Shown: positions 23,343 through 44,803, counted from the first letter of the stretch. The stretch: 64,000 nucleotides of DNA from Candidatus Bathyarchaeia archaeon (GCA_038870975.1 JAVZJD010000001.1:1001966-1065965), one strand, 5' to 3'. The notes: generated from the letters alone by a model not told the origin. Made by a program: numbers and translations.

Positions 23343-24233
23343 TTACTCTTCCCTTAATATGGGGCTTTTTCCATCAACAATATACGGCATTTTACGTGTT
23401 CTGAAAACGACTATCCTATCACTAAAATTCATCAGATATGTGAGTAGTAGGTTCTTTCCAAGCCTCGTCAATGCGAATACTGGTATGGCTACTCCAAGTT
23501 GCATAAGAGCCTCAGGTCCAATCTTCTCACGTATTATTCTAGATGCGCTTGCGCAAACTACATCTGCTCCAGCTAGAATCCTCTCCAAATCATCTTCCGT
23601 TGCACATGTATTGCATACTGAGAAAACGGCTATTTGTACATGGTTTTCTCTCTCAAATCTACGGATATGCTCTATCGATTTTGAGTTGAAATGAGCCACC
23701 GTTACAGCTATGCGTTTAAACCCCGATTCTACTGCTTTAACGACACCGTTAAATTGATCGATTTCAGCCGTCCCCTCGTTTAAAATGATCCCACCTCTAC
23801 TTTTAATATGTTCAATTATCTCTTCGATGGGCGTAGTTCTCATTATTCCAGTAAGTCTAGCTCCAATTTCTTGAACTAACTGTGGATTGCCAGATATAAC
23901 GGTTCCAGCCCCCTCACATACTGTGACAGCGCAGTCTAACAACCCCTCCTTCATACAAGTAGATATGATTTCTGAGCTTCCATATGGAACAACCATAGAG
24001 GGGTCGAAAACCCTGCCTTTGCAGCAGAAGCCGAAGCCTTCAATCTTCATCTTTACACAGTTTTTAACAACTTCTCTATCTACTTTTTTCACACCGTAGA
24101 AAGCTTCAAGCATAGGACAGTAGACTATTCTCGGTTCAGTCAAGACTTTTACGTCGCCATTTTTAATCAAAACTTTTGAACCGCAGCAGTAAAACTCATG
24201 CTCACCAACAGAGACCTTCAACACCATCCCCAC
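23343..24233 (-). CDS. Methanogenesis marker protein 8 (DUF2099) homolog
   Basis: YCP; VPYGSSEII; DCAVTVCEGAGTVI..NPQLVQEIG.R.TG...TTPI; IDQ..GV..A; CASAS. Confidence 0.85.
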   Translation of the reverse strand: MGMVLKVSVGEHEFYCCGSKVLIKNGDVKVLTEPRIVYCPMLEAFYGVKKVDREVVKNCVKMKIEGFGFCCKGRVFDPSMVVPYGSSEIISTCMKEGLLDCAVTVCEGAGTVISGNPQLVQEIGARLTGIMRTTPIEEIIEHIKSRGGIILNEGTAEIDQFNGVVKAVESGFKRIAVTVAHFNSKSIEHIRRFERENHVQIAVFSVCNTCATEDDLERILAGADVVCASASRIIREKIGPEALMQLGVAIPVFALTRLGKNLLLTYLMNFSDRIVVFRTRKMPYIVDGKSPILREE

Positions 24234-24261
24234 ACATATACTCCTGTGGAGTTATGAGGGT

Positions 24262-26012: not shown

Positions 26013-27299
26013 TTAGTAGAGCAATATGAGCCATAGTGAGCCTTTGGCTGGTTTTATCGAATTTACTTTAATGAAAGGCCCCGGCGTATCTAATGCTACT
26101 TTACCGCAGCCTTCAGGTATTTCCAGACGTATAGTCACGTAGTCTTCAGGGTTTATTAGTGAAGCGGTTTCAAATACCTCTACTAAGACTCTACCATGGT
26201 CGGCTCCACTGTGGACCAGTAGAGCTTTTCTCGCAGACCCAGTCCAATACCATTTCCCCGGCAGCTCTCTCTGGGTTTGTACGAAGACTCTATCTTTAAG
26301 AACCCCATAATTTCTCGGGTTAAATATAGAATAGTCTACGTAAACCGCGTAAATCTCATGGATATATCCCTCTCTCCCGGTGTCTCTCCTAGTCGACCAA
26401 GTATCTCTGAAAGACGAGAACAGTATCTTGGGGTATCCATCCGGCTCAGTCGTATAATGGGGATGTCCAATCTGCGTAAACACGTCATCCACCATGAGAT
26501 TTGGCAAGACATCCCCCTCCAACAGGCCTACGACTGGTATTCCACCATCCGGGTTAAGACCCTTAACATCACTGAGGGGAGGTCCCATGAACATTTTTAA
26601 AACCCATTTCCCAAATTCATCAGACTCTGTTATTACAGAGATTCGGGGCATTAAAATCAGGTCTAAAACGGCGTTTCCACTACCATGCCAAGCAGCTATT
26701 CCATAATCCTCTAATCTTATGTTCTCAAAATCATCTACATTCCTAATAGATAGGAGCTTTATCTTCTCCCCAGATGGAATTGCGGCTACAGCATCATGTA
26801 GATAGCCGTAGGCCCCCATGGGTTTGAATGGAACACCATGGTCTCCTACACCTTCTAAAATCCGCTTAAAACTCAACCTATTCCAGTTAGAATCAAACCA
26901 GAATACGTATGCTTCACTATCCTGCGTAACAGTCACTATAAATTCTTCTCTCACAGGGTTGTACAAGCCTCTAACAGCGTTCATCGTATAGGTTCCAGGG
27001 ATGATTCCAGACGGTAGAATCTTCTTAACCCTATCAACGTCTACTGTTAAATCCTTCTCTATAGGTGCAACAGCCCCTTCGCGTTTTAAGCCGACTAGGT
27101 CTCTCCACCCAGTGAATAGAAGCCACCTTTCGCCAGTCGAACTGTTGAATACTATGTAAGGAGTTCCAACACCTCCGGAAAAGTCTGGGAAAACTCTCTT
27201 CAACTCTTGAGGTCTAAGTACGGGTACTATCCTTTTAAAATTCACCGTCAATCCTCCTCCATTACTCGGTAAGACATGTAGAAATTTAAAAGCTTTCAA
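26013..27299 (-). CDS. Hypothetical protein, possible beta-propeller carbohydrate-active enzyme (start uncertain)
   Basis: Long beta-rich ORF; GVGTPY and GHPHY blade-like starts; GGAGG before an internal GTG. Confidence 0.55.
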   Translation of the reverse strand: MKAFKFLHVLPSNGGGLTVNFKRIVPVLRPQELKRVFPDFSGGVGTPYIVFNSSTGERWLLFTGWRDLVGLKREGAVAPIEKDLTVDVDRVKKILPSGIIPGTYTMNAVRGLYNPVREEFIVTVTQDSEAYVFWFDSNWNRLSFKRILEGVGDHGVPFKPMGAYGYLHDAVAAIPSGEKIKLLSIRNVDDFENIRLEDYGIAAWHGSGNAVLDLILMPRISVITESDEFGKWVLKMFMGPPLSDVKGLNPDGGIPVVGLLEGDVLPNLMVDDVFTQIGHPHYTTEPDGYPKILFSSFRDTWSTRRDTGREGYIHEIYAVYVDYSIFNPRNYGVLKDRVFVQTQRELPGKWYWTGSARKALLVHSGADHGRVLVEVFETASLINPEDYVTIRLEIPEGCGKVALDTPGPFIKVNSIKPAKGSLWLILLY

Positions 27300-27412
27300 A
27301 CCGTTAACACACTATAGGCGTTCTTCTGAAGAATCGTTCGTTATAAGGAAACGATTTTAAATCCTCAGCTCTACATGGAAAAACTTTAATAGTATTTTTT
27401 CTTGATGGAAGA

Positions 27413-28285
27413 TTGAGGAAGATGTATTTACAAAACAAGTTTTACAAAATGTCTACTGTTTTAATGTTTATAGCACTTCTATCGTTAATCCATATATGTG
27501 AAGCGGAGGAATCTAAGAACATTTACATATACTATGATTCATCATACCGTAATTCATGGCTCTCAATTACAGATTCAGATACAATCGTTAAATTCGTGCC
27601 AGAAACTCTAGCAAAGTACGGTATATCATGTGAAACCGTAGATGCTAAACGGCTCGCCGAAATCGTTTCACATCTTGAAGACGCGCCCAATACAATCATA
27701 TTAATGTCCATGGATGTAGCCCCAGATACAATTTGGACTGGTGCACCGGATTCCCCAATACAATTATGGATTGAAGCAGGTGGAACACTCATATGGACTG
27801 GCGATTGGGAGTTCTACTACGTCGGGTTTTCCAATTATACTAATGTACACCAGCCCTACATTGAAAATATCGTCTTCGGTATGATAACTGTTACAGCGTT
27901 TGCTGATAATACGGAGGTGAAACCCACGGAGCTCGGACGTAAAATCATGCCGAGTTTTGAAAGCTATAGAACAGATAGACCTACTTATGCTTCAATTGCT
28001 GAAACCTTTGACTGTGAAATCTATGGACTATCAGATGACGGACTCTACGCAGAACCAGTTCTAATAAAAGTCGGTAAGGGAGCTATCGTCAAGATCTGTA
28101 TGACCGGTGGAGATGTCGATTCTAATACACGGGCTATTTTAATATGCGAATTCATCCTAAACAGAGTATTTAACATGGGAGGGGTTAAAATCGAGAGACC
28201 ATTCCCAGTAATTCCCATAGCTATAGGGGTAGTAATAGCTGTGGCTACCGTCGCATTAATAGTACACTTTATTAGGAGACGATAA
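27413..28285 (+). CDS. Secreted protein with C-terminal membrane anchor
   Basis: Signal-peptide-like N-terminus; C-terminal TM followed by RRR. Confidence 0.7.
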   Translation: MRKMYLQNKFYKMSTVLMFIALLSLIHICEAEESKNIYIYYDSSYRNSWLSITDSDTIVKFVPETLAKYGISCETVDAKRLAEIVSHLEDAPNTIILMSMDVAPDTIWTGAPDSPIQLWIEAGGTLIWTGDWEFYYVGFSNYTNVHQPYIENIVFGMITVTAFADNTEVKPTELGRKIMPSFESYRTDRPTYASIAETFDCEIYGLSDDGLYAEPVLIKVGKGAIVKICMTGGDVDSNTRAILICEFILNRVFNMGGVKIERPFPVIPIAIGVVIAVATVALIVHFIRRR

Positions 28286-28287
28286 GC

Positions 28288-29571
28288 TTACCTATCCTCC
28301 TCGTATACTTTAAAGCCCATCAGCTTAGCTAGACTTCTAAGTTCATTCAGCCAATTTCCGTAGAATGTTACTCTATGCCATCCCCACCTCCAGTTTTCAA
28401 GTATACGGTCAGCTTTAACTTCTACGGCTAGTTTTGTTCTACAGGCTCTCTCATCGTCAATATTAGCCACGGCTTTACCAGTATGAATAGTCATAGCTTT
28501 CTCAAATGGGTTTACTTGAATCGTTGTTACGTATTCTTCTAGAGGCATTAGAGACTGTATAGACGCTCCACTTCTATCTTCGGCGTGAGACCTTATGATG
28601 TAAGGGTTTACTGGTCCGTTTAGACCGTAGACCATGCTCGGAGCTACGCAGTGAGCATATACAATCCACTTCTTAGATAAGTCGAAAACTGGGTCTGATA
28701 TGAAGCTTGGCTCTCCGGTTAAATATTTAATTATGAGCATTGCCAGCGTAGAGTTTAAATCCGCCTCGCATGCACCGATTAATCCTTCGTTGTTTAACTG
28801 GAAAAACCCTAAACATGGGTAAGCCTCTAGCCTGTTTGAGTATACTAAAGTTAAGCAGTCTACTGCTATGGCGATGGCTCCCTCCTCCTTTAGAAGTCTT
28901 TTCATTGCCAAGTACATTCTAGCCGCTTTAACGATTTCTCCTCTACTAGGCTCCATTACTCTCAAGGCCTCACGTATCCACTTCTCAGCCCACTTTTCCG
29001 CCTCCCCTATATCAGTTTCGCGATAGTACTGGTTAAGCTTCTCTGAAGATTCCTTTAAAACTTCAACACCTAAACTACTTTTGATAGCTTCAGAGGTCTT
29101 TCCTACATCTCTATCTGTTACAACGATTATCCTTGATTTTTTGAGTAATGCTACGACTCTGATCAACTTTAGAGCTTTAACTACATCTTCAAAGTCGGAT
29201 GATGCTACGGCTAATACAGGTAGTTCCTTATCCTTAGCCCAGGTGTATGTTGAAATCAGTTCGCCGCTTCCACCATATAAATCGTCTACTAATATCGTAG
29301 GTTTACCTGCACCTGCTATAGCATATCCGGCTCCAACCCATATGCCAAGCATGTAGACGACGTAACCGTCAACATCGCTTACTTCCTTAATTATCCTCTC
29401 TCCATCTTTCGAGCTCATAGCGGTTTTAAAATTGACGTCAAAATCTGGTATCTTCTTCTTAAGAAGATCCATAATCTCTTTCTTCCGAGCCTCATAATCA
29501 TAGCCTTTATAAGGCCAAGTAGGGGCGTCTGAAGACGGGTGGGAGAAAACCACGCAAATCCTACAACTCAT
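28288..29571 (-). CDS. L-fucose/L-arabinose isomerase-like protein
   Basis: AIAVDCL, YPCLGF..LN..G....CEAD, SDP, YAHC, CRTK, HRV..YG. Confidence 0.75.
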   Translation of the reverse strand: MSCRICVVFSHPSSDAPTWPYKGYDYEARKKEIMDLLKKKIPDFDVNFKTAMSSKDGERIIKEVSDVDGYVVYMLGIWVGAGYAIAGAGKPTILVDDLYGGSGELISTYTWAKDKELPVLAVASSDFEDVVKALKLIRVVALLKKSRIIVVTDRDVGKTSEAIKSSLGVEVLKESSEKLNQYYRETDIGEAEKWAEKWIREALRVMEPSRGEIVKAARMYLAMKRLLKEEGAIAIAVDCLTLVYSNRLEAYPCLGFFQLNNEGLIGACEADLNSTLAMLIIKYLTGEPSFISDPVFDLSKKWIVYAHCVAPSMVYGLNGPVNPYIIRSHAEDRSGASIQSLMPLEEYVTTIQVNPFEKAMTIHTGKAVANIDDERACRTKLAVEVKADRILENWRWGWHRVTFYGNWLNELRSLAKLMGFKVYEEDR

Positions 29572-29715: not shown

Positions 29716-30477
29716 ATGATAAAAATCGGTTGTGCTGCCTACTCTTACAGAGATTATCTTAAAGATGGAAGAATGAGTTATGAAGATTTTATAGAAGAAG
29801 CTTACCGTATGGGACTGGATGGTGTGGAGTTGACTCTATACTGGCTTCCATCTAAAGACCCATCATACCTTAGAAAGCTTAAGAGGTTGGCGTTTTCACG
29901 TGGGCTACCAATATCTTGTGCTGGAATCTCTACGAACTTCTGTACTCCAGATAGTTCTGAGAGAGACCGTATGATTAGAGCCGTAGAGGAAGGATTGAAT
30001 ATTGCTCGCGAATTGGGGGCATCAGCCCTTAGAGTTTTCGGAGGTTATACGCCTAGAGGATATACAGAGGCTGAAGCGACTAACTGGACAATAGAAGCGC
30101 TCAAGACTTGTGTAAGCTATGCTGAGGAAAAAGGCGTTGTAATAGCCTTAGAAAATCATGGGGGGATTACGGCTAGAGCAGATAATGTTGTAAGAATTGT
30201 GAAGGGTGTAGACTCACCGTGGCTTGGTGTGAACTTAGACTTGGGCAACTACACTGAGTCTACGTATGAGGATATTGCTAAAACAATTCCATATACTGTC
30301 CACATTCATGGGAAAATAAGTACAGCCAAGGGGGTTTCAGTCGACTATGAGAGAGTAAAGGGAATGCTTGTAAAAGGAGGCTACAATGGCTTCATCTCCA
30401 TTGAGTATGAAGAAGAGGAGGACCCTAAGACAGCCATACCGAAGTTTGCAAAATACCTGCTTAACCTCTTTAAATGA
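29716..30477 (+). CDS. Sugar phosphate isomerase/epimerase (AP-endonuclease-2 TIM barrel)
   Basis: LENHGG, NLDLGN, HIHGK, SIEYE metal ligands. Confidence 0.9.
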   Translation: MIKIGCAAYSYRDYLKDGRMSYEDFIEEAYRMGLDGVELTLYWLPSKDPSYLRKLKRLAFSRGLPISCAGISTNFCTPDSSERDRMIRAVEEGLNIARELGASALRVFGGYTPRGYTEAEATNWTIEALKTCVSYAEEKGVVIALENHGGITARADNVVRIVKGVDSPWLGVNLDLGNYTESTYEDIAKTIPYTVHIHGKISTAKGVSVDYERVKGMLVKGGYNGFISIEYEEEEDPKTAIPKFAKYLLNLFK

Positions 30478-30502: not shown

Positions 30503-31552
30503 ATGGGTAATGTAGTTAAAGTAGGTATATCCGGTCTTGGAAGAAGCGGTTGGAGTATTCACGCTAATACGCTTGAGAAATGCCCCAACTTATACAAGAT
30601 AGTAGCTGTATCCGACCCTATCGAGGAGAGACGTCGTGAAGCTGTAAGTAGATTCGGCTGCAGAGCATACCCCAACTTTGAACAGCTTATAAAAGATGAT
30701 GAAGTAGAGCTTGTAGTCGTAGCTACTCCAAGCTTTCTACATGCCCCACAAACCATAGAGGCTTTAAAAGCTGGTAAAAACGTGGTATGTGAAAAACCCA
30801 TGGCTACAAGCCTCTCCGAAGCCGATGCTATGATAAATGCCGCTAAGGAATCCAACAGAATACTGACGATTTTCCAAAACATGAGGTATGCGCCAGACTT
30901 TCTAAAAGTTAGAGAGGTAGTCCGTTCAGGAATACTGGGTCACATAGTTCTCATAAAAATCTATTGGCATTTCTTCGGTAGACGCTGGGATTGGCAGACT
31001 TTAAAGAGATTCGGAGGAGGAGAACTCAACAATAACGCTTCACACGCCATAGATCAAGCTCTCCAACTTATTGGAGATGGGGAACCCGAAGTCCTATTCT
31101 GCGACCTTCAGAGGACTTTAACCCTGGGTGATGCCGAAGACCACGTGAAAATAACCTTGGGAGTTCGTGGGTCTCCTACAATCGCCGATATAGAAGTTAC
31201 CCGTGCATGTGCCTATCCTCAGAACACATGGTTGATAATGGGAACTCAGGGAGGGCTTACAGGGACATCCACATCATTAAGATGGAAGTACTTCAACCCT
31301 GCAGACCTTCCCCCGAGGAAGGTTGAAACGGAGCCGACGCCAGATAGAAGCTACAACTGGGAGGAAATCCCCTGGAAGGAGGAAACGTGGAATTTAAGTA
31401 GAGACCAGAAGAGGGGTGAAATGCTCTTCTATGAAGGCTTGTATAGAACATTGCGTGAGGGAGCGCCCTTAAGTATTACGCCGCAGAGTGTTCGAAGAGT
31501 GATGTGGGTAATAGAAAAATGCCGCGAATACTGTGAAAAACGTTCAACGTAA
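30503..31552 (+). CDS. Gfo/Idh/MocA-family oxidoreductase
   Basis: GLGRSG, VATPS..H, VCEKPM, GGGEL.N..SH..D. Confidence 0.93.
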   Translation: MGNVVKVGISGLGRSGWSIHANTLEKCPNLYKIVAVSDPIEERRREAVSRFGCRAYPNFEQLIKDDEVELVVVATPSFLHAPQTIEALKAGKNVVCEKPMATSLSEADAMINAAKESNRILTIFQNMRYAPDFLKVREVVRSGILGHIVLIKIYWHFFGRRWDWQTLKRFGGGELNNNASHAIDQALQLIGDGEPEVLFCDLQRTLTLGDAEDHVKITLGVRGSPTIADIEVTRACAYPQNTWLIMGTQGGLTGTSTSLRWKYFNPADLPPRKVETEPTPDRSYNWEEIPWKEETWNLSRDQKRGEMLFYEGLYRTLREGAPLSITPQSVRRVMWVIEKCREYCEKRST

Positions 31553-33117: not shown

Positions 33118-34455
33118 ATGGGCGTTAAAATCACTATTATAGGGGCAGGTAGTCTGGTTTTTACTCCTAATATTCTCGCAGACCTTACGAAATCCAATGT
33201 CCTCGCTGGCTCCAACGTCTGTCTCATGGATATAGATGAGAAGAGGCTAAACTTAATGACCAAGCTTGCCGATAGAATAATGCGTGAAGAGAAGTCGGAT
33301 ATTGCCGTTAACGCAACCACTGATAGAGCTGAAGCTTTGAGAAACGCTGACTACGTAATTATCTCAATATCTGTTGGTACTGATGTTGAAAGATTCGACG
33401 TTGAAATACCGAAGAAGTACGGTTTATATGCATCAGTGGGGGATACAACTGGACCGCAGGGTTTTGCAAGAGCGCTTAGACACATCCCGGTTATGGTCGA
33501 CATCGCTAAGGATATTGAGAGAATCTGTCCAAGCGCTTTTGTACTCAACGTGACAAATCCAATGACCGCGTTATGTACAGCTATGCTTAAAACGTCGAAG
33601 ATAAACCTCATCGGACTTTGCGTTGGAATATACATAGCGAAAAACTTCATAGCTAGACTTCTAGATCTAGACTCTGAAACAATAAGCGTAATCGCGGGTG
33701 GAATAAACCACTTTACGTGGATAAAGGAGATTTTCATTAGAGGTGAGGACGTTTATCCTAAGTTTCACGAAGTTTGGGAGAATGCTAAGAAGTCGTACAG
33801 TAGACTTGAGATGCTTGAAAAATTCAGAGGCCACTACATATCCCTACTCCTGTACGATAAATTCGGACTATTTCCATCCCCTTCAGACTCTCACATAGCA
33901 GAATTTTTACCATACTTCATAAGGGAGGATAAAGCATACGGTTCCATCTACGGTTTAACACTATACCCGCAAGGGACAATATACGACCCTAAGTGGCGTG
34001 AACAGGCTTGGTCACGTCTAGTTGAATGGGCAACTGGCACAGCTCCACTAGATGAGCTATTCGCGAGAACATTCACAGAAGAAACGCTTGTAATCAGAGT
34101 ACTTGAAAGTCTATCGTCTAAACGTAACGACTTCTACGAGGCGGTTAATATCCCAAATATGGGGTCTATTCCAGATATTCCAAGTAACGCTGTAGTTGAG
34201 GTTCCAGGGGTTGTAGGTAATATAGGGGTAAAGCCTGTCCAAGTTGGCTCACTTCCCAAGTCAATCACACAGCTTCTCAGACAGCAACTTACACACATAG
34301 ATTTAACGGTTGACGCCGCTTTAACCGGAGACAGTAAACTTGCATTACAAGCACTGTTAATGCATCCTTCAATACCAAATTTAGAGGTTGCTGAAAACAT
34401 ACTTAACGATTTAATAAGATACGAATCTAAGTATCTTCCACAATTTAAAGATTAA
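33118..34455 (+). CDS. Glycoside hydrolase family 4 (NAD+/Mn2+-dependent), CVGI variant
   Basis: KITIIGAGS; GDTTGPQG..RALR; NVTNP; GLCVG; GINHF; VVEVP. Confidence 0.92.
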   Translation: MGVKITIIGAGSLVFTPNILADLTKSNVLAGSNVCLMDIDEKRLNLMTKLADRIMREEKSDIAVNATTDRAEALRNADYVIISISVGTDVERFDVEIPKKYGLYASVGDTTGPQGFARALRHIPVMVDIAKDIERICPSAFVLNVTNPMTALCTAMLKTSKINLIGLCVGIYIAKNFIARLLDLDSETISVIAGGINHFTWIKEIFIRGEDVYPKFHEVWENAKKSYSRLEMLEKFRGHYISLLLYDKFGLFPSPSDSHIAEFLPYFIREDKAYGSIYGLTLYPQGTIYDPKWREQAWSRLVEWATGTAPLDELFARTFTEETLVIRVLESLSSKRNDFYEAVNIPNMGSIPDIPSNAVVEVPGVVGNIGVKPVQVGSLPKSITQLLRQQLTHIDLTVDAALTGDSKLALQALLMHPSIPNLEVAENILNDLIRYESKYLPQFKD

Positions 34456-35669
34456 CGGATTATGGGGTAATCTGCTAAGCGCCTCCAAACATCCAACATC
34501 ACTTTTATACTCTCCCACGGTGTATCTGGAAATATTTGATCTATTGCTGATAATATGAATCCTCCTCCTGGTGCAAGCGTTTCAATAGCGTCTACTACTG
34601 CTTTCTCAATCTCTTCCCTAGACCACAGCTTTAGCGTGACTGAAGAGTTTATACCACCCCATATGCATATCCTATCTCCAATTTCTCTTTTCACTTGTAA
34701 TAATTTTGCTCCTCCTTGAACGGGGTCTACACCGTAGAGGACATCTACTCCCGCCTCTTTGAAGAAGTCTAAGAGAGGCATTATACCCATAGACATTATG
34801 TAGCAGAATTTAAGCCCATGTCTATGAACATAATCCGCCAGTTTCTTAACATAAGGTAGTATGAATTTTCTGTAGAGTTTCGGCGGCCAAAAGTCCGCAT
34901 TCTCATACCATCCACGGTGAACAATTAGATCTACTGCTCCAGACTCTATGGCTAATCTAATATACCTGATATCCCATTCAAATATTACATCTAACACTCT
35001 TTGGATAAACTCTGGATTTGTATAAGCAGCTCTAATGGTGTTTTCGAGCCCGCAGAGCCAATGTAGTGCATCTGCGCCGACAACTCCACCTTCAACTCCT
35101 TCTTCATAAGCCATACCGGCTTCAACTAAAACACCATGCTTATCTGCGAAACTTCGAACTTCATTAGCCTTCTCAAAGAAGATTTTAAGCTCTTTATCCG
35201 AAGGTTCTGTAAGTAAACATGATAATGCATCTATATCCTCCTCCTTTTCAACAAGAAACTTTAAAGAACGAGCCTTCGGGATAACAAAATCCGTAAAAAG
35301 TGGCACATCGTCACCATGTGGCCAGTCTGGTGTTTGACGTACAATGCGCTTAAGGACGCCCTTAGCTGTGTGGTATTCTTTTATAATCAGCGCATCTCTC
35401 TCCCCAGGTGGATGAATCTTACTTACCTTAGTTTTGACCTCTGGGTTAAGTGAAACTGGTACTTTTAAAGTTATAGTATCATCTATTCCAAGTTTTAGTA
35501 GTCTGAGGACGCGTTCAAGCTCACTATGCCAACGGTCATTCTCATCTACTAGAAACGGGCGCTCCCACCACTTAAGACATAATGGAACGTGGTCTGGTTC
35601 ATCTAAATTTATGGCTGTTAAAAGCCGCTCCCTCGAATTCAACTCCTCTCTCAATTGAAACACCTCCAA
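34452..35669 (-). CDS. UroD/MtaA/CmuA-superfamily protein
   Basis: SRERLLTAI..DEPDHVP; GD...WGGIN; APGGGFILS. Confidence 0.85.
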   Translation of the reverse strand: MEVFQLREELNSRERLLTAINLDEPDHVPLCLKWWERPFLVDENDRWHSELERVLRLLKLGIDDTITLKVPVSLNPEVKTKVSKIHPPGERDALIIKEYHTAKGVLKRIVRQTPDWPHGDDVPLFTDFVIPKARSLKFLVEKEEDIDALSCLLTEPSDKELKIFFEKANEVRSFADKHGVLVEAGMAYEEGVEGGVVGADALHWLCGLENTIRAAYTNPEFIQRVLDVIFEWDIRYIRLAIESGAVDLIVHRGWYENADFWPPKLYRKFILPYVKKLADYVHRHGLKFCYIMSMGIMPLLDFFKEAGVDVLYGVDPVQGGAKLLQVKREIGDRICIWGGINSSVTLKLWSREEIEKAVVDAIETLAPGGGFILSAIDQIFPDTPWESIKVMLDVWRRLADYPIIR

Positions 35670-35764
35670 CTGGATTTGGGAAAGACCAGTTTAAAGCTTT
35701 ACGAATCCACATACGACGTAGACTATGTAATATTCCTAATACAAACTCGGCCGTTCCATAAAGG

Positions 35765-37198
35765 TCACTGTTTAATTAGAGATTCACTTGCCTCTTTAAT
35801 TATTCGGTCTATTTCTCTTTCCACACTTAAGTCTAGAGGCTCAACCTCATGCTTTGACAAGATTCTATTGACTGTTTCCCTAATCTCCCTCAATTTAGCT
35901 GGAGCGTCCTTAGACTTCCATGCCTCCCAGTTCAGTCTATCGAAGATTTTTGGAAACCAGAATTCACTTCTTATGTGTAGTATAGTGTGTCTCTGAGAGA
36001 GAAAGCTTCCACCTATACCTACTCTTTTTATAACATCTAAGGCTATGGTTTCACTCTCAACATTGAAACCCTTTAGTAAGCGTTTAACGTAACTGGCGAC
36101 TTCATCATCTACTACTAGTTGCTCTAAGCTACCGCCGACGTCCGCGCCTATGATACCTTGATGCCCACTAAGCTCTGCTCCTGCAAAAGCACCTAGAGTC
36201 ATAGTTGCAGCCTTCTCAACGCCAGATTGGAAATCAACACTTTTAGAGTCTGTTAAACCCACGTTAACATGTACAGGTAAACCGTAGTATAGACCTATTT
36301 GAACCATAGCTACCGCCATTAAACCCTGTTCAGGAGAACCAAAGGATATGTTTCCAGTTCTCTGATCCATTATGTGGGGTATACCGCCATAGAGGATTGG
36401 CGTTCCTGGACCTAAAACCTCCGCAATAACTATGCCAGCTAGTATTTCGGCGTTCTCAAGGGCTAGCGTTCCAGCCAATGTTGCAGGCCCCGTCGCGCTC
36501 GCCATAACCATAGGTGCAAAGCAAACTGGGATTTTACGTTCAGCAAAAAGTTTTAAAATAGGTAGGCTGTGAGGGCTGAATTTTAATGGGCTTATAGGCT
36601 CGAAAAAACCTAGGGATAGGGGTTTCTTGCCAGGCGCTTCTCCCGTTATAGTGGTCCACATTTTAAGTATGTATTCAGCCGATTGAACTGAGTATATCCA
36701 AGCGAAAAAAGGCTTTGAAGTATGCTTGATGAGCGTTGCATACATATATACGTCGGCAATTTGCAAAGGTACATCCTGAGGTACGAATAAGGCACCTACT
36801 ATGTCTATATTTTCCAACGCGTCTCCGAGTTTAACAGCTTTTACAGTATCTTCTAGGGTTGCAATTCTTCTATCGCTTGTTAAAGGGTCTACGACGTTCA
36901 TCATACCTCCACTAGATAGGACTTTGAACTTTCCATCGCCAAATGTTACGTTTCTACCGCTCCGTGAGTATACTGTGAAGCTTTTAGACGCTTTCTTAAC
37001 CATTTCAACGATTAAGCTCTCTGGAAGTTTAACGGTCGAAGTCTTCCAATCTACTTCACAGCCCACGTTTTTAAGCGCGTTAACTACTTCATCGTTTGGA
37101 ACTTGAACCCCTACTTCTTCCAAGATGTTTAAAGAAGCCTCATGTATGGATTCAACATCTACCCTCGATAGTATTTTAAGCCTCAAATTGGGCACCAC
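35765..37198 (-). CDS. MttB-superfamily methyltransferase, non-pyrrolysine
   Basis: IHEASL.ILEEVGV; ISPL; GPATLAG..A..NAE.LAG; FGSPE; TDSK..D.QSG.EK; SLEQLVVD.E. Confidence 0.93.
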   Translation of the reverse strand: MVPNLRLKILSRVDVESIHEASLNILEEVGVQVPNDEVVNALKNVGCEVDWKTSTVKLPESLIVEMVKKASKSFTVYSRSGRNVTFGDGKFKVLSSGGMMNVVDPLTSDRRIATLEDTVKAVKLGDALENIDIVGALFVPQDVPLQIADVYMYATLIKHTSKPFFAWIYSVQSAEYILKMWTTITGEAPGKKPLSLGFFEPISPLKFSPHSLPILKLFAERKIPVCFAPMVMASATGPATLAGTLALENAEILAGIVIAEVLGPGTPILYGGIPHIMDQRTGNISFGSPEQGLMAVAMVQIGLYYGLPVHVNVGLTDSKSVDFQSGVEKAATMTLGAFAGAELSGHQGIIGADVGGSLEQLVVDDEVASYVKRLLKGFNVESETIALDVIKRVGIGGSFLSQRHTILHIRSEFWFPKIFDRLNWEAWKSKDAPAKLREIRETVNRILSKHEVEPLDLSVEREIDRIIKEASESLIKQ

Positions 37199-37210
37199 AT
37201 ATACGCTTCT

Positions 37211-38527
37211 TTAACGCTTGGTTTTAAACTGAGGCAGAAGAGGTGCGTGAACCTCTAGAAGTTCGTCAAGCGTTTTCTTAGCCGCTTCAACGCTATGTAC
37301 AACCGGGTCTATCAGCAGGGCTTGTAATGCCTTTTCATAAGACCCTTCATACGCAGCTTCAACCGATAACCTTTGAATGACTGCTTGTGTATAGCACAAT
37401 GCATCTATCCCAGTCGGGAGACTTCCAATATGTATCGGATGTATACCACTACCGTCGACTACGGCAGGCACCTCTACCACAGTATCTAATGGTAGATTTG
37501 TCACCACACCCTTGTTCGGAACATTAACAGCATACTCGAAATACCGTCTGTTTGAAACGATAGCTTTGATTATGTTCACAGCCTGTCCTCTTTCACCTCT
37601 GATTAGTTCTGAAGAGCTATAGAGTTCTACAGACAATTTATCCGTAGCTAAATCATCCACTGTTTTACGAATATTTTCAGACCATTTTTCAACGGCGCTA
37701 AGCCAGTTTTCCCCTCTCTCCCTCTCTGGGACAATATCCCAAGCATAAGATACATATTCCCCTACATGCCCATCTGATGGAGATGGATAATATCCATACG
37801 TTAGGCATAAGATCCTAGACAGAGGCTCCCCAGCCAGTATGTCTCGCTTAACGTCATCCGCAGTTTTAAGCCTATCAATAAGAATAGGATAAGCATTTTC
37901 ACCAGAATCTTTAAACCAAAGCTTCAGAATCCATGTAAAGTGGTTCAATCCAGCGGCCAGAGCTTCAATCTGACGGCCTAAAGCTGTAGATAGCCACTCC
38001 ATTCTGCCGTAGATTCCGGGGCAGAGTCCAACAGCTTTAAGCTTCGTATAACGGTTTATTGCATATGCTACTCTCGCCTCTGGGTTTGAATAGTTCATAA
38101 CTAAAGCATTGGGACATAGGTCTTCAACATCACGGCATATTTCTAATACCAATGGAACTACACGTAGAGTATGTGCCAACCCTCCTGGACCACCACATTC
38201 GCCGATAACCTGTTTAATGCCATATTTATGGGGTATTTGAAAGTCCAGCCACCACCTCTTCATCCTCTCTTTCTCAACAGCTATTATTACAAAGTCTGAA
38301 CCACTAAGTCCATCTTTAGTTTTCGTGAAAGATTCGATCTTTAAATTAGCTTTAAAGTACTCATTAAACCGCTCTGCAACCTTAGCCATAGTCTTAAGCT
38401 TCCCCTCGTCTATATCTATCAATGCAATAGTGCCACCGTGAAGCTCTTCCGTGCTCACGATATCGCGTAATGTTTCAAGACCAAAGGAAGCACTACCAGC
38501 ACCAACTAAAGATATCTTAACCTCCAT
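37211..38527 (-). CDS. Glycoside hydrolase family 4, CPGI variant
   Basis: KISLVGAGS; GECGGPGG..H.LR; NYSNP; GLCPG; GLNHF; VVEVPA; start at ATG 38527 after GGAGG. Confidence 0.92.
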   Translation of the reverse strand: MEVKISLVGAGSASFGLETLRDIVSTEELHGGTIALIDIDEGKLKTMAKVAERFNEYFKANLKIESFTKTKDGLSGSDFVIIAVEKERMKRWWLDFQIPHKYGIKQVIGECGGPGGLAHTLRVVPLVLEICRDVEDLCPNALVMNYSNPEARVAYAINRYTKLKAVGLCPGIYGRMEWLSTALGRQIEALAAGLNHFTWILKLWFKDSGENAYPILIDRLKTADDVKRDILAGEPLSRILCLTYGYYPSPSDGHVGEYVSYAWDIVPERERGENWLSAVEKWSENIRKTVDDLATDKLSVELYSSSELIRGERGQAVNIIKAIVSNRRYFEYAVNVPNKGVVTNLPLDTVVEVPAVVDGSGIHPIHIGSLPTGIDALCYTQAVIQRLSVEAAYEGSYEKALQALLIDPVVHSVEAAKKTLDELLEVHAPLLPQFKTKR

Positions 38528-38730
38528 AAAAGTGCCTCCACACTTAGAAAAACCCTTGAAATATTTAAGTTTACATGCGATGAAATAGACTTTTGAGAGA
38601 TGTATAGAATCCTCCAACGCCGTAATCTTCTAAAAACTGAACATATCCTAGTGTAATTTAGTGTCGCATCCAAGGCCCCCTCTAATGGAACCTTAAAAAG
38701 AAAAAAGAGGAATCGTTCCCACTGCTTGGT

Positions 38731-40731
38731 TTAGAATGGTATGAAGAACCTTACCACGCCTATTGGATGGGCCATAACGTTTACTAAAGCTAAACCAGCT
38801 AGAAATCCAGCGACAAATGGAATGCCATAATTCTCGTACAATTTACTCCCACCTACTTTTAACGTTATCCACTTAGCTATCCAGGCGAATACAAAGGCGT
38901 TCCAGCTCCCCCACCAAGCGATACCAACGCTTGGAGCCATTGCAAAGCCGAGTGGATGTAATGGCCACCATATGAATCTAGCTCTAAGCAGAGATAAGAT
39001 TACTGTGATCAATCCACCTACGAACATTACTCCAAAGACGGTGTTCGCCGCCCCTCCGAAGACGTATCTTTCAATGGAGCTATCCCACATGTATTCCATA
39101 GAGCATGTACCCCAAACCGTCACACGACTTGTGCCAAGTAGATAGTAGATCCACACTCTTGCACATAGCATCACGGGGATTGCTATGAGGGATGATATAA
39201 CTAGTAGTAGAAAGCTATTACGTATATTGACGTTTGTTAACTGTCCCATCTTTAGAACGCTCATGGTTGTATGTGCTCCGTTAACAGGACCATTGGGTAC
39301 TACATTCCATCCACATACGATGAATGCATGAGCCATGAACCACTCAGTAGAATATTCTGAGGGTGCCGTAGGCCATATTAAGCGTAGCGGCCAGCTCATC
39401 CATACTGCTTTCTCATGAACAAAGGGGCATCCGGCGATACCGAGAGCATAAGTATCTGTTATTGAGTGGAGAAACGTCACCATTAGCCCTACTAGAGCTA
39501 CGGCGATGGTTATCCCGGAGAAGCATTGATAGGCAATCATAAATACTGCAGACATTAGGATCAACAGGTATATTGTTCTATAGCTAAATACTTCACCATT
39601 CGAGGGTCTACCATGAATAGCTTCTTTAAACGTATCAGCTACATATGTTCTTGAATGCCACATCACCATAAGTGCTATAGCTACTATTCCACCCATAGAT
39701 ATATAAGCCCAGTAGAACGGCGGAGTCCAGTAAAGTGCCTGATCGTAGATTGCTCTACATCCACCACCCGTTGTAAGAAGTCCAGTGTGGTAGCCTAAAA
39801 CATAGGCCGCTTGATCAAGTATTATCATTAAAATCGTGAAGAACGTGAAGCTGAACAGTATGTCTAGTGGTGCCAGAAATAGTATTGCATGCGCCAACGG
39901 GTCTTTCGTAAACCTGCCCCAGTGGACTATTGACTGCATAAGTGGGTCGGTGGCTGGTAGACAAACGCATCCTACGGCAGTGGTATTAACTCTGTAACCG
40001 AATATGTCTGGCCACCATGGGAAGAGATATGTGAGGAGAATCTGCACCTCTATTAGGAATCCTACTATGAAGCCTATGATGTAGGGTCTGATGCTTCTTC
40101 TCTCAGTCCTCTCCGCCTGTATGAATTCAACAGTTCCATAAGTAGCTAGTACATGAGGAAACGGTACTCTCTCAACATCTATCCACCTACGTCGCAATAG
40201 TAGCATGAGGCTTGATGTAAAGAACATAAACGTGTACATGTATAGTGTCCAGAATAGTATAGTTGGAGCCCAAGCCCCCCAATTTACTGGCATTCCACCG
40301 GGTATTATTTCTCTAACGACGTCGTATGGAGGCATCCACCACCAACTCTCCATGATAGTTCTAAGAGGCTCAGGTGAGTATAAGATAGGCATTACGTGTG
40401 CCACTGGATGTAACGCGAAAGTAACCATGTCTTGAAATCCATAGTATGACATAACCAATCCTATTATGTATATCGAGACCAAGGTTGGAACGCTAACCTC
40501 TCGAGTTCTTTTTAAAGGATACATTAGAAGCAATAGGAATACTGGAGCAATAGGTAAAGCCGTTGTTCTGGCGTATATACCCCACGTGAAGTGGCACATT
40601 AAGCCCAGGCTTGTGATATTGCAGAGAGCCATATCGATTGTTCCGACAATCGATAGAATCAACGATAGTAGTGGTATTAAAATCCAGTGTTTACTTTCGA
40701 ATTCCAACTCTCCCCTAGAAGGCATAACCAA
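38731..40731 (-). CDS. DUF6785/OPT-like polytopic membrane protein (paralog of 21228-23252)
   Basis: LLRRRWIDVERVPFP; RARFIWWPLHPLGF; KWITLKVGGSKLYE. Confidence 0.82.
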   Translation of the reverse strand: MVMPSRGELEFESKHWILIPLLSLILSIVGTIDMALCNITSLGLMCHFTWGIYARTTALPIAPVFLLLLMYPLKRTREVSVPTLVSIYIIGLVMSYYGFQDMVTFALHPVAHVMPILYSPEPLRTIMESWWWMPPYDVVREIIPGGMPVNWGAWAPTILFWTLYMYTFMFFTSSLMLLLRRRWIDVERVPFPHVLATYGTVEFIQAERTERRSIRPYIIGFIVGFLIEVQILLTYLFPWWPDIFGYRVNTTAVGCVCLPATDPLMQSIVHWGRFTKDPLAHAILFLAPLDILFSFTFFTILMIILDQAAYVLGYHTGLLTTGGGCRAIYDQALYWTPPFYWAYISMGGIVAIALMVMWHSRTYVADTFKEAIHGRPSNGEVFSYRTIYLLILMSAVFMIAYQCFSGITIAVALVGLMVTFLHSITDTYALGIAGCPFVHEKAVWMSWPLRLIWPTAPSEYSTEWFMAHAFIVCGWNVVPNGPVNGAHTTMSVLKMGQLTNVNIRNSFLLLVISSLIAIPVMLCARVWIYYLLGTSRVTVWGTCSMEYMWDSSIERYVFGGAANTVFGVMFVGGLITVILSLLRARFIWWPLHPLGFAMAPSVGIAWWGSWNAFVFAWIAKWITLKVGGSKLYENYGIPFVAGFLAGLALVNVMAHPIGVVRFFIPF

Positions 40732-40818
40732 CTATTAGTCCATGTGTATATATAAGCATTTTCTCGGATGTTTAGAAGCTCATGTCATTTAACCATTACC
40801 TACGAAGTCAAAGGAGGA

Positions 40819-41895
40819 TTAAAATATGTTGCCTTTTACAGGATACTTTCCATAAATCGTCAATGTCTTAGTAATTGTCATAAATGCATCTTCAAGCAAG
40901 TCTACTGGAGCGTCTTCAGTCATTCCTATGATAACCCCATCCCCAGGGGCTATCTCCTCCAAAAGTTTAATCGTGTACTTTTCAATCACTTTAACACCGT
41001 AGTGTAGAATCGTCTCTGGAAAATTAACCCATATTATAAACTTGTTATTCCAACATTCTTTAGCCTCTTTAAGCGGTAAATCGCCCATAGGTGGAGGAGT
41101 GAAAGCCTCTACAATGTCTATGTTCATTGTTGCAATGTGGTATTTCAACTTCTTCAGCAATCCATCCATATGTACCGATAGCATCTTATTCTTAGCGTGG
41201 AGTATATCTGCGAACTTCTCAAGTAAAGGTATATAGTACGTTTCAAAAATCTTCGGGCTCATAACTAAGCCCGTAATCTGGTCCCCACACCATACGAATT
41301 CAGCCGGAGAATTGGCTATTATACGATATGTCTCTTCCTGCCTCTCAGCCATAATATGTATTAAATCTTCAATCCTCTCCCTATTTCTATAAAACTCTTT
41401 ACAGAGTCTTTCTAAACCCATATAATGAACCCATAATTTGCTAAAAGGCGTAGGATCAGCATTAGCAGTTAAAATACCACTATTTCCTACTTTCTCATCG
41501 AGTTCTACAAAATATCCATAATCAGGTTTATATACAGCGTCTTCCTCTATGAATCTTATAACTCTATAATCAGATGGTTCTTTAAACGGGTATTCTACTA
41601 TCCAGTTTTCACCAGCTTCAGGTCTTAAACCAGTTCTAATACGCATAGACATTGAGCCTACGGGTGTACTGTAAGTCCTATGCACAATATTTCCAATCCT
41701 TCTCTCCTCTACGTGTACATTTGGATGTTCAACTCTATAAACTGGTATCCAGGCGTACAGAATACCCATACCCATGCTTCTAAGTCTTTCTTCAGCAGAT
41801 GGGCTTATCCTAGCGATAGACCTATATGGAACAAAAGGAATATACTCAGGCTTACCACGGTGTAAAATCGCCATGATATTCTCTCTAATATTCAT
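40819..41895 (-). CDS. UroD/MtaA/CmuA-superfamily protein
   Basis: REN.MA.L....PEYIP; TPVG; MSP..F..YY.P; VHMDG; EAFTPPPMGD. Confidence 0.85.
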   Translation of the reverse strand: MNIRENIMAILHRGKPEYIPFVPYRSIARISPSAEERLRSMGMGILYAWIPVYRVEHPNVHVEERRIGNIVHRTYSTPVGSMSMRIRTGLRPEAGENWIVEYPFKEPSDYRVIRFIEEDAVYKPDYGYFVELDEKVGNSGILTANADPTPFSKLWVHYMGLERLCKEFYRNRERIEDLIHIMAERQEETYRIIANSPAEFVWCGDQITGLVMSPKIFETYYIPLLEKFADILHAKNKMLSVHMDGLLKKLKYHIATMNIDIVEAFTPPPMGDLPLKEAKECWNNKFIIWVNFPETILHYGVKVIEKYTIKLLEEIAPGDGVIIGMTEDAPVDLLEDAFMTITKTLTIYGKYPVKGNIF

Positions 41896-41953
41896 CTACT
41901 AACACCAGAAAGGGAGATATTTTATATAGGAATAAGGAGATTGTTTCTAAATT

Positions 41954-43372
41954 ATGAGTTTTACCTTTAAACCTAGGCTCAACATTGGAGACATCGTTCC
42001 TAAGCGGCTCATAGAAACTATGCATGAGAGGGCTTTAGAAGTCCTCGAAAAGGTAGGGATCAAAGTCACAAATAAGCTTCTCATAAGACGGATAATAGAA
42101 CGTAACGGGTTTAAACTAGACAGGGAATGGGTGAAAATTAAAAGTAGCCTAGTTGAAGACTTAGTCGTAGAAGTTAGACGGAAACGAAAGCATAGTATGA
42201 TGCGTAGTTTAAGTGAGGAAGAGCTTATACTTTCACCTGGGTATCCAGGTTGTTCTTGGATAGTAGACTTAGAGACAGATACCATAAAACCTTTAACAAC
42301 TGAAAAACTCGTAGAAGCCACTAAGCTTACGGATTCGCTTTACGAGTGGGGCGTTAGAGGAGGGGCTCCAGGGGCTCCCGTAGATGTACCGCCTAAACTG
42401 CGGAGGGTTGCGCAGTGTTTAATAGGTTATACGTATAGCCGTTCAGCTGGCCCGGCTCCATTTGAAAGTTACGAGGAGGCCGTCTATATTAAGCGTATGG
42501 CTGATGTTATGGGTCATGGTTTCGGGGTGGACGTGTACGTAATAAGCCCCCTCCGTCTTGAAGGCATATCTTTAGATAGGGCTATACCGTTCTTAGAGAA
42601 TGGGGAATGTGATTGGGTGGGAATAACGTCTATGCCGCTTGCAGGTGCTACGGCACCAGTATATCCAGTGGGGGCATTTATCCAAGGTATAAGCGAGGCT
42701 TTAGGTGGATACGCCATACTTCACGAAGCCTACCCAGACATACCTATGGGCTTCAGTGTAAATGCCTACCACTTCGATATGCGCCATGGTAACATAGTAT
42801 TCGGGTCTCCTGAGCAGACCCTAATGGACTTATTTAGCATAGTGTTAAACATGTTTTACGGTGGAGGACTGCACGGGGTTAGATCTTTCAGAACAGTTGC
42901 AAAACAAGTAGACATACAGGCGCAAGTTGAAAAAGCCTCTTCAGCCACGGTTGGAGTATTAACAGGACCTGGCGCATTTATCCATGCTGGCCTACTGAGT
43001 ATAGATGAGATCTTTAGCCCCGTACAATTGATCATAGACTGCGAATTGGCTAAGTATTTAACTAGGCTTGCTAAAGGTTTAGAATTTACGGAAGATCAAA
43101 TAGAACTGTCAATTGAAACAATAGCCAGGTGTGCTCTCAAGGGTCAGTATTTAACAGATGAAACGACTCTGAAAGATTACAGGAGGATATATTGGACTCC
43201 CGAAATATTCGACTATTCCCTACTTCACACATACAAACCAGGTCCAGATATAATAGCGAAAGCCAAGAAAATATGTAAGGAGAAGATCCAAACACATAGG
43301 TATCAGCTTGAAGACGAAAGAAGGAAAAAACTAGAAGAAATATATCGAGAGGCTGTTAAAACGCTATCTTAG
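41954..43372 (+). CDS. MttB-superfamily methyltransferase, non-pyrrolysine (divergent)
   Basis: MHERALEVLEKVGI; ISPLRL; GATAP; FGSPE; K.VD.QA..EK; FSPVQLIIDCE. Confidence 0.88.
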   Translation: MSFTFKPRLNIGDIVPKRLIETMHERALEVLEKVGIKVTNKLLIRRIIERNGFKLDREWVKIKSSLVEDLVVEVRRKRKHSMMRSLSEEELILSPGYPGCSWIVDLETDTIKPLTTEKLVEATKLTDSLYEWGVRGGAPGAPVDVPPKLRRVAQCLIGYTYSRSAGPAPFESYEEAVYIKRMADVMGHGFGVDVYVISPLRLEGISLDRAIPFLENGECDWVGITSMPLAGATAPVYPVGAFIQGISEALGGYAILHEAYPDIPMGFSVNAYHFDMRHGNIVFGSPEQTLMDLFSIVLNMFYGGGLHGVRSFRTVAKQVDIQAQVEKASSATVGVLTGPGAFIHAGLLSIDEIFSPVQLIIDCELAKYLTRLAKGLEFTEDQIELSIETIARCALKGQYLTDETTLKDYRRIYWTPEIFDYSLLHTYKPGPDIIAKAKKICKEKIQTHRYQLEDERRKKLEEIYREAVKTLS

Positions 43373-44431: not shown

Positions 44432-44803
44432 ATGGGTCATATATGGGTGAATGTCAAACTCTTAAATCCTAAAACGGGCGGTGAAATTGAGACTAAAGCG
44501 CTTATCGATACAAGTGCAACGTATACCGTTGTCCCAGTGGAGATCGCTAGAAAACTGGGTCTTGAAAACCTTGGCTTTGTAGACGTGAAAACAGCTAGCG
44601 GTAGTGAAAGGCTTTGGGAGTCGGAGGTTAGAATAAGAATGTTTGATAGAGAGAGATCGTCACCAATACTCGTAAGCGAGAAGATGGATGTTCTATTGAT
44701 TGGCGTCGTAACCTTAGAAATACTCAGGCTGAAAGTGGATCCGACGACGGGTATAGTCGAAGAGCTTCCACTCCTTCTATACACGGTCTACATAAGAGGA
44801 TAG
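44432..44803 (+). CDS. Clan-AA aspartyl protease family protein (DTS instead of DTG)
   Basis: MGHIWV; ALIDTSATYTVVP; LIGVVTLE.L.L.VDP.TG. Confidence 0.85.
   Translation: MGHIWVNVKLLNPKTGGEIETKALIDTSATYTVVPVEIARKLGLENLGFVDVKTASGSERLWESEVRIRMFDRERSSPILVSEKMDVLLIGVVTLEILRLKVDPTTGIVEELPLLLYTVYIRG

Follow-up and report, generated by a model that had tools for sequence, protein, structure and literature searches.

A cluster of GH4 glycosidase and MttB-family genes in a Bathyarchaeia genome and its possible part in sugar demethylation

What do the only two MttB-family genes of an archaeal genome do among glycosidase genes? The question is raised by positions 33118–43372 of a 64,000-nucleotide stretch (hereafter the window) from Candidatus Bathyarchaeia archaeon (GCA_038870975.1 JAVZJD010000001.1:1001966-1065965). 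The cluster contains two genes of glycoside hydrolase family 4 (GH4), two of the MttB superfamily, two UroD-like genes and one for a DUF6785/DUF6784 membrane protein. The source genome (1.85 Mb in two contigs, 92.9% complete) encodes an archaeal thermosome and archaeal marker families, and its closest relatives are hot-spring Bathyarchaeota metagenome-assembled genomes (MAGs). It has about 10 GH4 genes and just two MttB genes, both in the cluster; their position is its specific feature. A first-pass annotation had proposed uptake, deglycosylation and anaerobic demethylation of O- or N-methylated sugars or glycosylated methoxy-aromatics. The linkage of the genes, their sugar context and corrinoid parts encoded in trans speak for this proposal; the role that it gave to the UroD-like genes does not stand, and its substrates can be named only tentatively. 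We see an even chance that the cluster is a glycoside-utilisation locus that took up a cobalamin-type demethylation step.

Cluster layout and the MttB binding sites

Five genes lie on the minus strand, in the order UroD_B (40819–41895), the DUF6785/DUF6784 gene (38731–40731), GH4_B (37211–38527), MttB1 (35765–37198) and UroD_A (34452–35669). At one end, MttB2 (41954–43372, plus strand) diverges from UroD_B. At the other, GH4_A (33118–34455, plus strand) converges on UroD_A and overlaps it by 4 bp. Pfam searches bear out this gene set and its places as first annotated. The start of GH4_A at 33118, in an open reading frame (ORF) that opens at 33088, is indicated by relatives of 445 amino acids (aa). 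GH4_B was found in the Pfam scan as an ORF at 37211–38617, and public gene calls for identical or near-identical proteins (438 aa) set its start 30 codons later. GH4_B and MttB1 are separated by 12 bp, as first described. The tight run claimed for the minus-strand genes holds at this junction; the other gaps measure 87–203 bp, with TATA-like boxes in the spacers, which were read by eye. The box TTTTATATA (41920–41928) lies midway in the 58-bp spacer between UroD_B and MttB2, about 25 bp from both starts, and is a possible shared archaeal promoter element for these two genes, as read from the sequence. A sigma-70 promoter scan gave sites no more numerous than in shuffled sequence, with a model that is not applicable to an archaeon.

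Both MttB proteins belong to the MttB superfamily. They match PF06253 with 298.8 bits (MttB1) and 141.9 bits (MttB2) against a cut-off of 25 bits, and both align end to end with MtgB. MttB1 scores 251 bits against the MtgB structures 9yce and 2qne; it also aligns end to end with MttB (PDB 7xcl), at 212 bits. MttB2 scores 93 bits against MtgB. Neither frame contains an in-frame stop or pyrrolysine codon, and Leu315 of MttB1 aligns to the pyrrolysine position; both are non-pyrrolysine members. The NCBIfam model trimeth_pyl is the best-scoring one, though below its cut-off; against the trimethylamine methyltransferase model TIGR02369, MttB1 (394.6 bits) and MttB2 (133.9 bits) both stay under the cut-off of 525. 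In the MttB tree, the MttB2-type proteins form a separate clade with 100% support in the Shimodaira–Hasegawa-like approximate likelihood-ratio test (SH-aLRT). The nearest relatives of MttB1 outside its close kin are two archaeal genes (L008 and L009), and further relatives are numerous at 45–56% identity.

The binding site of MtgB was described in 2026: Tyr97 and Phe356 make cation–π contacts, and Arg312 and His348 contact the carboxylate of the substrate. Arg312 is conserved in all characterised members, and their substrates are all acidic quaternary amines (PMC13080624). The position of Tyr97 is occupied by Gly throughout the MttB1 clade (79/79), and the Tyr is kept in the window's MttB2 in a pairwise alignment. 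Arg312 is replaced by Tyr in the MttB1 clade, and by His in its archaeal members and in MttB2. An Asp stands at the position of Phe356 in 78/79 members of the MttB1 clade, in MttB2 and in all four rows of the MttB2 clade. His348 is kept in the MttB1 clade and in MttB2. In the window's MttB1 itself, G, H and D stand where MtgB has Y97, R312 and F356. Two further residues, His275 and Asn312, do not vary within the MttB1 clade. The Tyr97/Phe356 pair together with Arg312, by which the quaternary-amine members MtgB, MtcB, MtyB, MtpB and MthB are recognised, is lacking.

Because these binding residues are replaced, an acidic quaternary amine is unlikely as the substrate, as are trimethylamine and betaine; classical use of the latter two by MttB1 or MttB2 was set aside on the same residues. 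A polar, hydroxyl- or amine-bearing substrate would fit the altered site better. The first-pass annotation had treated action on methoxy compounds as established for the MttB family. The characterised members that we found use trimethylamine or acidic quaternary amines (PMC13080624). A predicted complex of MttB1 with the corrinoid protein described below scored 0.12, under the mark, and is counted neither for nor against.

Recurrence of the GH4–MttB link

A scan of one genome per species revealed at least 516 places that encode an MttB1 relative, most of them in Planctomycetota, Verrucomicrobiota, Anaerolineae, Acidobacteriota and Bathyarchaeia. Neighbourhoods were counted in 80 fetched species loci, and directly upstream genes in 70. 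Greedy gene calling gave spurious antisense ORFs in GC-rich bacterial loci, and phmmer hits and public gene calls were relied on. A GH4 gene lies within 6 kb of the MttB1-type gene in 8 of the 80 loci: in close kin (L006, L007 and L012), in a second Bathyarchaeia clade (L015), and in Clostridia (L013), Caldilineae (L019), Actinomycetota (L055) and Phycisphaerales (L020). A second MttB gene is present in 6 of the 80, a UroD-like gene in 12 and a corrinoid protein gene in 2. The gene directly upstream of the MttB1-type gene is a GH4 gene in 5 of the 70 loci and a Gfo/Idh/MocA gene on the same strand in 28.

Both GH4 proteins of the cluster carry two GH4 domains. The motifs GAGS, GLC(P/V)GI (GLCVGI in GH4_A, GLCPGI in GH4_B) and NH align with those of solved enzymes and correspond to the N-terminal GxGS dinucleotide fold and the Cys and His for Mn2+ of the family. 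The best specificity models for the pair are those of alpha-galactosidase and alpha-glucosidase, both below cut-off. CHGx-type GH4 motifs presumably mark alpha-glucuronidases or alpha-galacturonidases, although no paper on GH4 motif classes turned up in the searchable literature, and 4-O-methyl-glucuronate is only one candidate substrate among several. In the GH4 tree, GH4_B belongs to a clade of nine rows from Bathyarchaeia, Actinomycetota, Clostridia and Caldilineae (97% SH-aLRT), which leaves out the other seven GH4 paralogues of the window genome. Since one clade covers the partners from four phyla, these MttB genes are accompanied by one specific GH4 subfamily. GH4_A groups with a Caldilineae protein (L019_3335) and two paralogues from its own genome. 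Of the co-localisation that the first-pass annotation had wanted tested, the GH4–MttB link recurs in distant phyla with a dedicated GH4 subfamily.

Transporters and kinases for sugars usually accompany the GH4–MttB link. The Clostridia locus reads GH4, sugar ABC transporter, MttB, MttB, zinc-type alcohol dehydrogenase, GH4, ROK regulator and UroD. The Caldilineae locus is one same-strand run of a UroD_A-type gene, PfkB, a GH4_A-type gene, a sugar ABC transporter, GH4_B-, MttB1- and MttB2-type genes, a BadF-type ATPase and a further GH4. An Anaerolineae locus has UroD, a sugar ABC transporter, an MttB2-type gene and three GH4 genes. These Clostridia, Caldilineae and Anaerolineae relatives are all MAGs. 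In a Methanomethylicaceae MAG, 147 bp separate an MttB1-type gene (46% identity) from the GH4_B-type gene downstream of it, and a sugar ABC transporter is next to them. The two nearest archaeal relatives stand next to a corrinoid protein gene: L008 has the order corrinoid protein, MttB, UroD, MttB, flanked by PfkB, double-SIS protein and MalK-type genes, and L009 has corrinoid protein, FucI-like isomerase, MttB.

The MttB2-clade members come from Clostridia, Caldilineae and Bathyarchaeia loci that also have an MttB1-type gene and GH4, and in the first two the MttB2-type gene directly adjoins the MttB1-type gene. Other MttB2-type genes adjoin DUF6785, AP_endonuc_2, Gfo/Idh/MocA or Amidohydro_2 genes, and one archaeal example lies beside a GH4 fragment and a UroD_A-type gene. 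In an uncultured archaeon (L104:7350-8860) an MttB2-type gene is preceded by a pair of Amidohydro_2 genes, and in a same-strand run of an Anaerolineae MAG (L106:2330-3923) such a pair lies about 5 kb upstream; this pair may be a further conserved partner of MttB2-type genes.

The Gfo/Idh/MocA–MttB1 pair occurs in Planctomycetota, Verrucomicrobiota, Anaerolineae and others (L010:8609-11428, L026, L028, L066), often near ROK kinases, sugar ABC or TRAP transporters and DegT-type aminotransferases. We found no description of this gene pair in the searchable literature. In a search of 17 genomes of the class, a sample too small for a profile, an MttB1 orthologue turned up in 4 of the 5 remaining species of its genus, and the five other genera had none, which suggests that the module was acquired by transfer.

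Corrinoid parts in trans and the accompanying families

No B12-binding protein is encoded in the 64-kb window, as the first-pass annotation had said. The other contig encodes one cognate-type corrinoid protein of 215 aa with B12-binding_2 and B12-binding domains, which scores 226 bits against TIGR02370 (cut-off 215.3) and has the DxHxxG motif as DLHDIG. Its gene lies beside a GH116 gene, a few kb from an alpha-L-fucosidase gene and another DUF6785 gene; it stands alone, at L005:9684-10331, between a lysine-2,3-aminomutase-like/ATP-grasp pair and the GH116 gene (whole region L005:3739-13059; C2 ~683.9–693.3 kb). The genome also has CdhC, two MtrH-family genes, for one of which MtgA is the best-scoring model, and a single full-length RACo/RamA-family activase whose closest match is AcsV. 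No Pterin_bind protein was found in it. With these parts present, the means exist to pass a methyl group from MttB into the archaeal Wood–Ljungdahl pathway. The search for a DxHxxG corrinoid protein and a RamA-like activator that the first-pass annotation had called for found both. It had held that missing linkage in other genomes, or a genome with no corrinoid protein, would speak against its proposal; the linkage recurs and the protein is present, so neither objection applies.

A stand-alone corrinoid protein of 206–228 aa, similar to that of the window genome, is encoded in each of five further genomes that have MttB1-type genes (Phycisphaerales, Acidobacteriota, Armatimonadota, Caldilineae and Clostridia). 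The Clostridia gene is followed by a Pterin_bind methyltransferase gene, and the Caldilineae gene lies beside a UroD-like gene. A RACo-family activase was found in 4/5 of these genomes compared with 1/14 control genomes, in a small sample whose controls were not phylogenetically matched. This co-occurrence of corrinoid protein and activase favours real corrinoid chemistry by the MttB1-type proteins.

The UroD-like genes had been proposed as MtaA-type onward methyl carriers. Both cluster proteins belong to the URO-D superfamily, UroD_A (405 aa) matching PF01208 with its C-terminal half only and UroD_B being a divergent member (39 bits). All five UroD-like proteins of the window score far under the MtaA and HemE cut-offs: UroD_A reaches 50 bits and UroD_B 27 bits with the MtaA models (cut-offs 235–400), and at most 38.6 bits are reached with the HemE model TIGR01464 (cut-off 303). 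Where MtaA has its zinc ligands, His-x-Cys...Cys, UroD_A reads Y-I-M...D (motif YIM(S/T)xG) and UroD_B reads H-M-D...E (motif HMDG). Zinc-ligand positions and scores rule these genes out as MtaA orthologues, and the proposed carrier role is given up, the family having about 24 copies in the genome, in sugar loci with or without MttB. MtrH is a better candidate than the UroD-like proteins for the second methyl transfer. The UroD-like proteins of the cluster are probably sugar-processing enzymes, or first-step methyltransferases of an undescribed kind.

The genome has about 24 URO-D-like, about 23 DUF6785 (21–23) and about 24 Gfo/Idh/MocA genes. The genes of the cluster do occur twice, as first annotated, but because UroD-like and DUF6785 genes belong to large genome-wide families, finding them doubled in the cluster is background. 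Many UroD-like genes adjoin GH38, DUF6785, Gfo/Idh/MocA or xylose-isomerase-like barrel genes without any MttB. One such pairing of UroD-like gene and glycosidase is the GH38 alpha-mannosidase gene (771–3830, plus strand), followed after 15 bp by UroD_C (3846–4826, plus strand), as the first-pass annotation had described. Further examples of the paralogue families in the window lie at 24262–25341, 52414–53508 and 21228–23252, in addition to 3846–4826. Most UroD-like paralogues have the motif HxDGN where MtaA has HxCGN, in a genome with only one corrinoid protein. The UroD_A subtype is common to the MttB/GH4 loci of Caldilineae (L019) and an uncultured archaeon (L105), and a further paralogue of this subtype in the window genome stands away from any MttB. 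UroD_A-type and UroD_D-type paralogues also occur in tandem on contig C1 (601589–603901).

The membrane protein of the cluster matches DUF6785 and DUF6784 (118.9 and 57 bits) and has 11–13 hydrophobic segments, as expected of a polytopic member of this family. Several DUF6785 paralogues adjoin glycosidases, and the DUF6785 proteins are probably the sugar importers of this lineage.

Further sugar-conversion genes lie beside the cluster: a distant sugar isomerase-like protein (28288–29571, minus strand), which weakly resembles models of sulfoquinovose and L-arabinose isomerases, a xylose-isomerase-like TIM barrel (29716–30477, plus strand) and a Gfo/Idh/MocA oxidoreductase (30503–31552, plus strand). 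Their order is kept in L006 and L007, and a FucI-like relative of the isomerase is the gene between the corrinoid protein and the MttB1-type gene in L009. The region 26013–29571 holds three conserved genes with no Pfam family, the isomerase-like one among them, also in the same order in L006 and L007. Between 31553 and 33087 there is only a 142-codon ORF where these two relatives have an extra DUF6785 gene between Gfo/Idh/MocA and GH4_A, so a DUF6785 gene was either lost here or gained in the relatives. A spacer of 28 bp separates the minus-strand UroD-like gene at 24262–25341 from one that passes the model for "methanogenesis marker 8" (DUF2099; together 23343–25341); nothing in the window pointed to methanogenesis, and no search aimed at MCR was made. 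A small plus-strand ORF with a retropepsin-like aspartyl protease domain (44432–44803) lies between MttB2 and a FAD-dependent oxidoreductase gene.

A possible route and its rivals

The demethylation reading can be laid out as a route. A glycoside would be imported by the DUF6785/DUF6784 membrane protein and cleaved by GH4_B and GH4_A through the NAD+- and Mn2+-dependent oxidation–elimination of family 4. MttB1 and MttB2, as substrate:corrinoid methyltransferases, would then demethylate a carbohydrate-derived compound and not an acidic betaine; candidate donors are an O- or N-methylated sugar, an amino sugar, a cyclitol or a methylated aglycone. The methyl group would pass to the single corrinoid protein of the genome, held reduced by the RACo/RamA-family activase, and an MtrH-type methyltransferase would hand it to the pterin carrier of the Wood–Ljungdahl pathway. 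The products of the isomerase, oxidoreductase and TIM-barrel genes nearby would lead the demethylated sugar into central metabolism. Because this MttB clade regularly pairs with an NAD-dependent sugar-oxidising enzyme, we conjecture that oxidation beside the methylated position, by GH4 or Gfo/Idh/MocA, may improve the leaving group for attack by Co(I).

Carried further, the pairing leads to a bolder proposal, which we hold only tentatively and regard as rather doubtful. A module mobile between archaea and bacteria would be the first anoxic, cobalamin-dependent demethylation of methylated carbohydrates (O- and N-methyl sugars, uronates, amino sugars and cyclitols). Two new MttB clades would take the methyl group, and an NAD-dependent partner (GH4, or Gfo/Idh/MocA in Planctomycetota, Verrucomicrobiota and Anaerolineae) would free the substrate or activate it oxidatively, turning a poor alkoxide into an enolate-type leaving group. 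The methyl group would be kept for acetogenesis and not lost as formaldehyde.

Several points weigh against the demethylation reading. To our knowledge, no characterised MttB-family enzyme acts on a sugar or an O-methyl group. The corrinoid protein, MtrH and the activase are all unlinked to the cluster, and 78/80 related loci have none of the three; being closest to AcsV, the activase may serve the corrinoid protein of acetyl-CoA synthase instead. The only tight junction in the window is that of GH4_B and MttB1. Both UroD-like genes of the cluster lack the zinc ligands of MtaA, and in this genome UroD-like and DUF6785 genes occur in sugar loci generally. Most bacterial relatives of MttB1 are linked to Gfo/Idh/MocA rather than GH4, and some of these loci stand beside DegT-type aminotransferases, where a different role is possible. 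Among four sampled further GH4_B-type homologues only one has an MttB neighbour, so the glycosidase can occur without the link.

The same observations leave room for MttB-like TIM barrels that are not methyltransferases at all. Like the xylose-isomerase-like barrels of the 3-keto-glycoside, C-glycoside and inositol pathways, they could have been recruited for keto-sugar chemistry, as a lyase, hydratase or isomerase acting on the products of GH4 or Gfo/Idh/MocA. We think this unlikely. It would explain why Gfo/Idh/MocA (28/70) or GH4 (5/70) lies directly upstream, why MttB2-type genes adjoin AP_endonuc_2 barrels, Gfo/Idh/MocA and Amidohydro_2, and why 78/80 loci have no corrinoid protein. The quaternary-amine cage is gone, with invariant polar His275, Asn312, His346 and Asp353 in its place, and many hosts (Pirellulales, Acidobacteriota) belong to groups often considered aerobic or facultative. 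We know of no MttB member with another function, however, and sequence identity to MtgB extends over the entire barrel. Every characterised member reviewed in PMC13080624 is a corrinoid methyltransferase. A corrinoid protein gene adjoins MttB in the nearest archaeal relatives, and all six genomes checked, that of the window included, have a stand-alone corrinoid protein, five of them with a RACo-family activase that is rare in the controls.

If the two proteins are methyltransferases, they might still be ordinary ones for methylamines or quaternary amines such as osmolytes, which merely share a sugar neighbourhood and are not fed by the glycosidases. This is how they are read in public annotation, which calls them trimethylamine or glycine betaine methyltransferases, and published Bathyarchaeia surveys likewise take mttB for trimethylamine methyltransferase. 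In a genome dense in sugar genes some adjacency is expected, and most junctions of the cluster are roomy enough for promoters of their own. The proteins themselves argue otherwise: neither gene has a pyrrolysine codon, both clades have lost Phe356 and the MttB1 clade also Tyr97, and MttB1 lacks the Arg shared by all characterised members (PMC13080624). The link to one GH4 subfamily, sugar transporters and kinases recurs in unrelated phyla, in loci that have no amine or betaine transporter, and we regard ordinary amine use as improbable. Very improbable is a biosynthetic role, or one on a cell-envelope sugar such as an amino sugar made by Gfo/Idh/MocA and DegT-type enzymes: DegT/DnrJ/EryC1 aminotransferases and epimerases do occur near the Gfo/Idh/MocA–MttB pair in several bacterial loci, but the partners in the window and the GH4-linked loci are importers, glycosidases and sugar kinases, i.e. 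catabolic, and we know of no corrinoid-dependent MttB family member that methylates a sugar.

Returning to the demethylation reading, the closest parallel is the MtgB/MtgC/MtgA system of Desulfitobacterium hafniense, a glycine betaine:corrinoid:tetrahydrofolate methyltransferase system (2qne, 9yce; PMC13080624). MtgB, a non-pyrrolysine TIM barrel, is the best solved relative of both MttB1 and MttB2, the corrinoid protein of the window genome is MtgC/MtbC-like, and one of its MtrH proteins resembles MtgA most. Unlike in the Mtg system, Arg312 and Phe356 are missing from both window proteins and Tyr97 from MttB1, the corrinoid protein and second methyltransferase are not adjacent, and the partners are GH4, a membrane importer and sugar-converting enzymes. 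The trimethylamine methyltransferase system MttB/MttC/MtbA of Methanosarcina (7xcl) shares the superfamily of MttB1 but differs in having pyrrolysine where MttB1 has Leu, and the UroD-like neighbours here lack the MtaA/MtbA zinc site.

The aryl methyl ether O-demethylases of acetogens (Odm/Mtv) also lead from a first methyltransferase through a corrinoid protein and a second methyltransferase, with an activase, to the Wood–Ljungdahl pathway. Their first methyltransferases have the URO-D fold, and by analogy the UroD-like genes of the cluster could play that part. The present system differs in that its candidate first methyltransferases are of the MttB type and its context is glycosidases and sugar transporters, not aromatic catabolism. 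The O-demethylation system reported for lignin-using Bathyarchaeia (PMC10321748) belongs with these corrinoid systems.

Demethylation of a carbohydrate encoded within polysaccharide-utilisation loci is known from porphyran, where a cytochrome P450 demethylates 6-O-methyl-D-galactose in an oxygen-dependent reaction that releases formaldehyde (PMC6292453, PMC9400963). There is no sequence relationship to the present module, which would be an anoxic counterpart that conserves the methyl group. The pathways for 3-keto-glycosides, inositol and C-glycosides (NCBIfam BT_2158/BT_2159, IolG/IolE), in which a Gfo/Idh/MocA dehydrogenase works with a xylose-isomerase-like TIM barrel, are related through the Gfo/Idh/MocA and AP_endonuc_2 genes that flank the MttB genes in the window and in relatives, and through a transient 3-keto chemistry that GH4 also uses, but none of them contains an MttB-family protein. 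In the searchable literature we found no paper linking MttB to GH4 or to sugar loci; the P450 route was the only carbohydrate demethylation found, with none that is corrinoid-based and none for 4-O-methyl-glucuronic acid under anoxia. The enzyme families and the corrinoid logic are known, and what is new is the context, the binding pocket and, probably, the substrate class.

Polysaccharides of plants, algae and microbes often contain methylated sugars, and the anaerobic handling of their methyl groups is the question on which this module may bear. The MttB superfamily is rich in uncharacterised members, and its characterised non-pyrrolysine members act on acidic quaternary amines (PMC13080624). 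With its sugar loci, its re-made pocket and a dedicated GH4 or Gfo/Idh/MocA partner, the MttB1 clade is a concrete, assayable candidate. If the demethylation reading is true, polysaccharide breakdown would be tied directly to one-carbon metabolism and acetogenesis in Bathyarchaeia and in polysaccharide-degrading bacteria, and the routine annotation of such genes as trimethylamine methyltransferases in methane-cycle surveys would be corrected.

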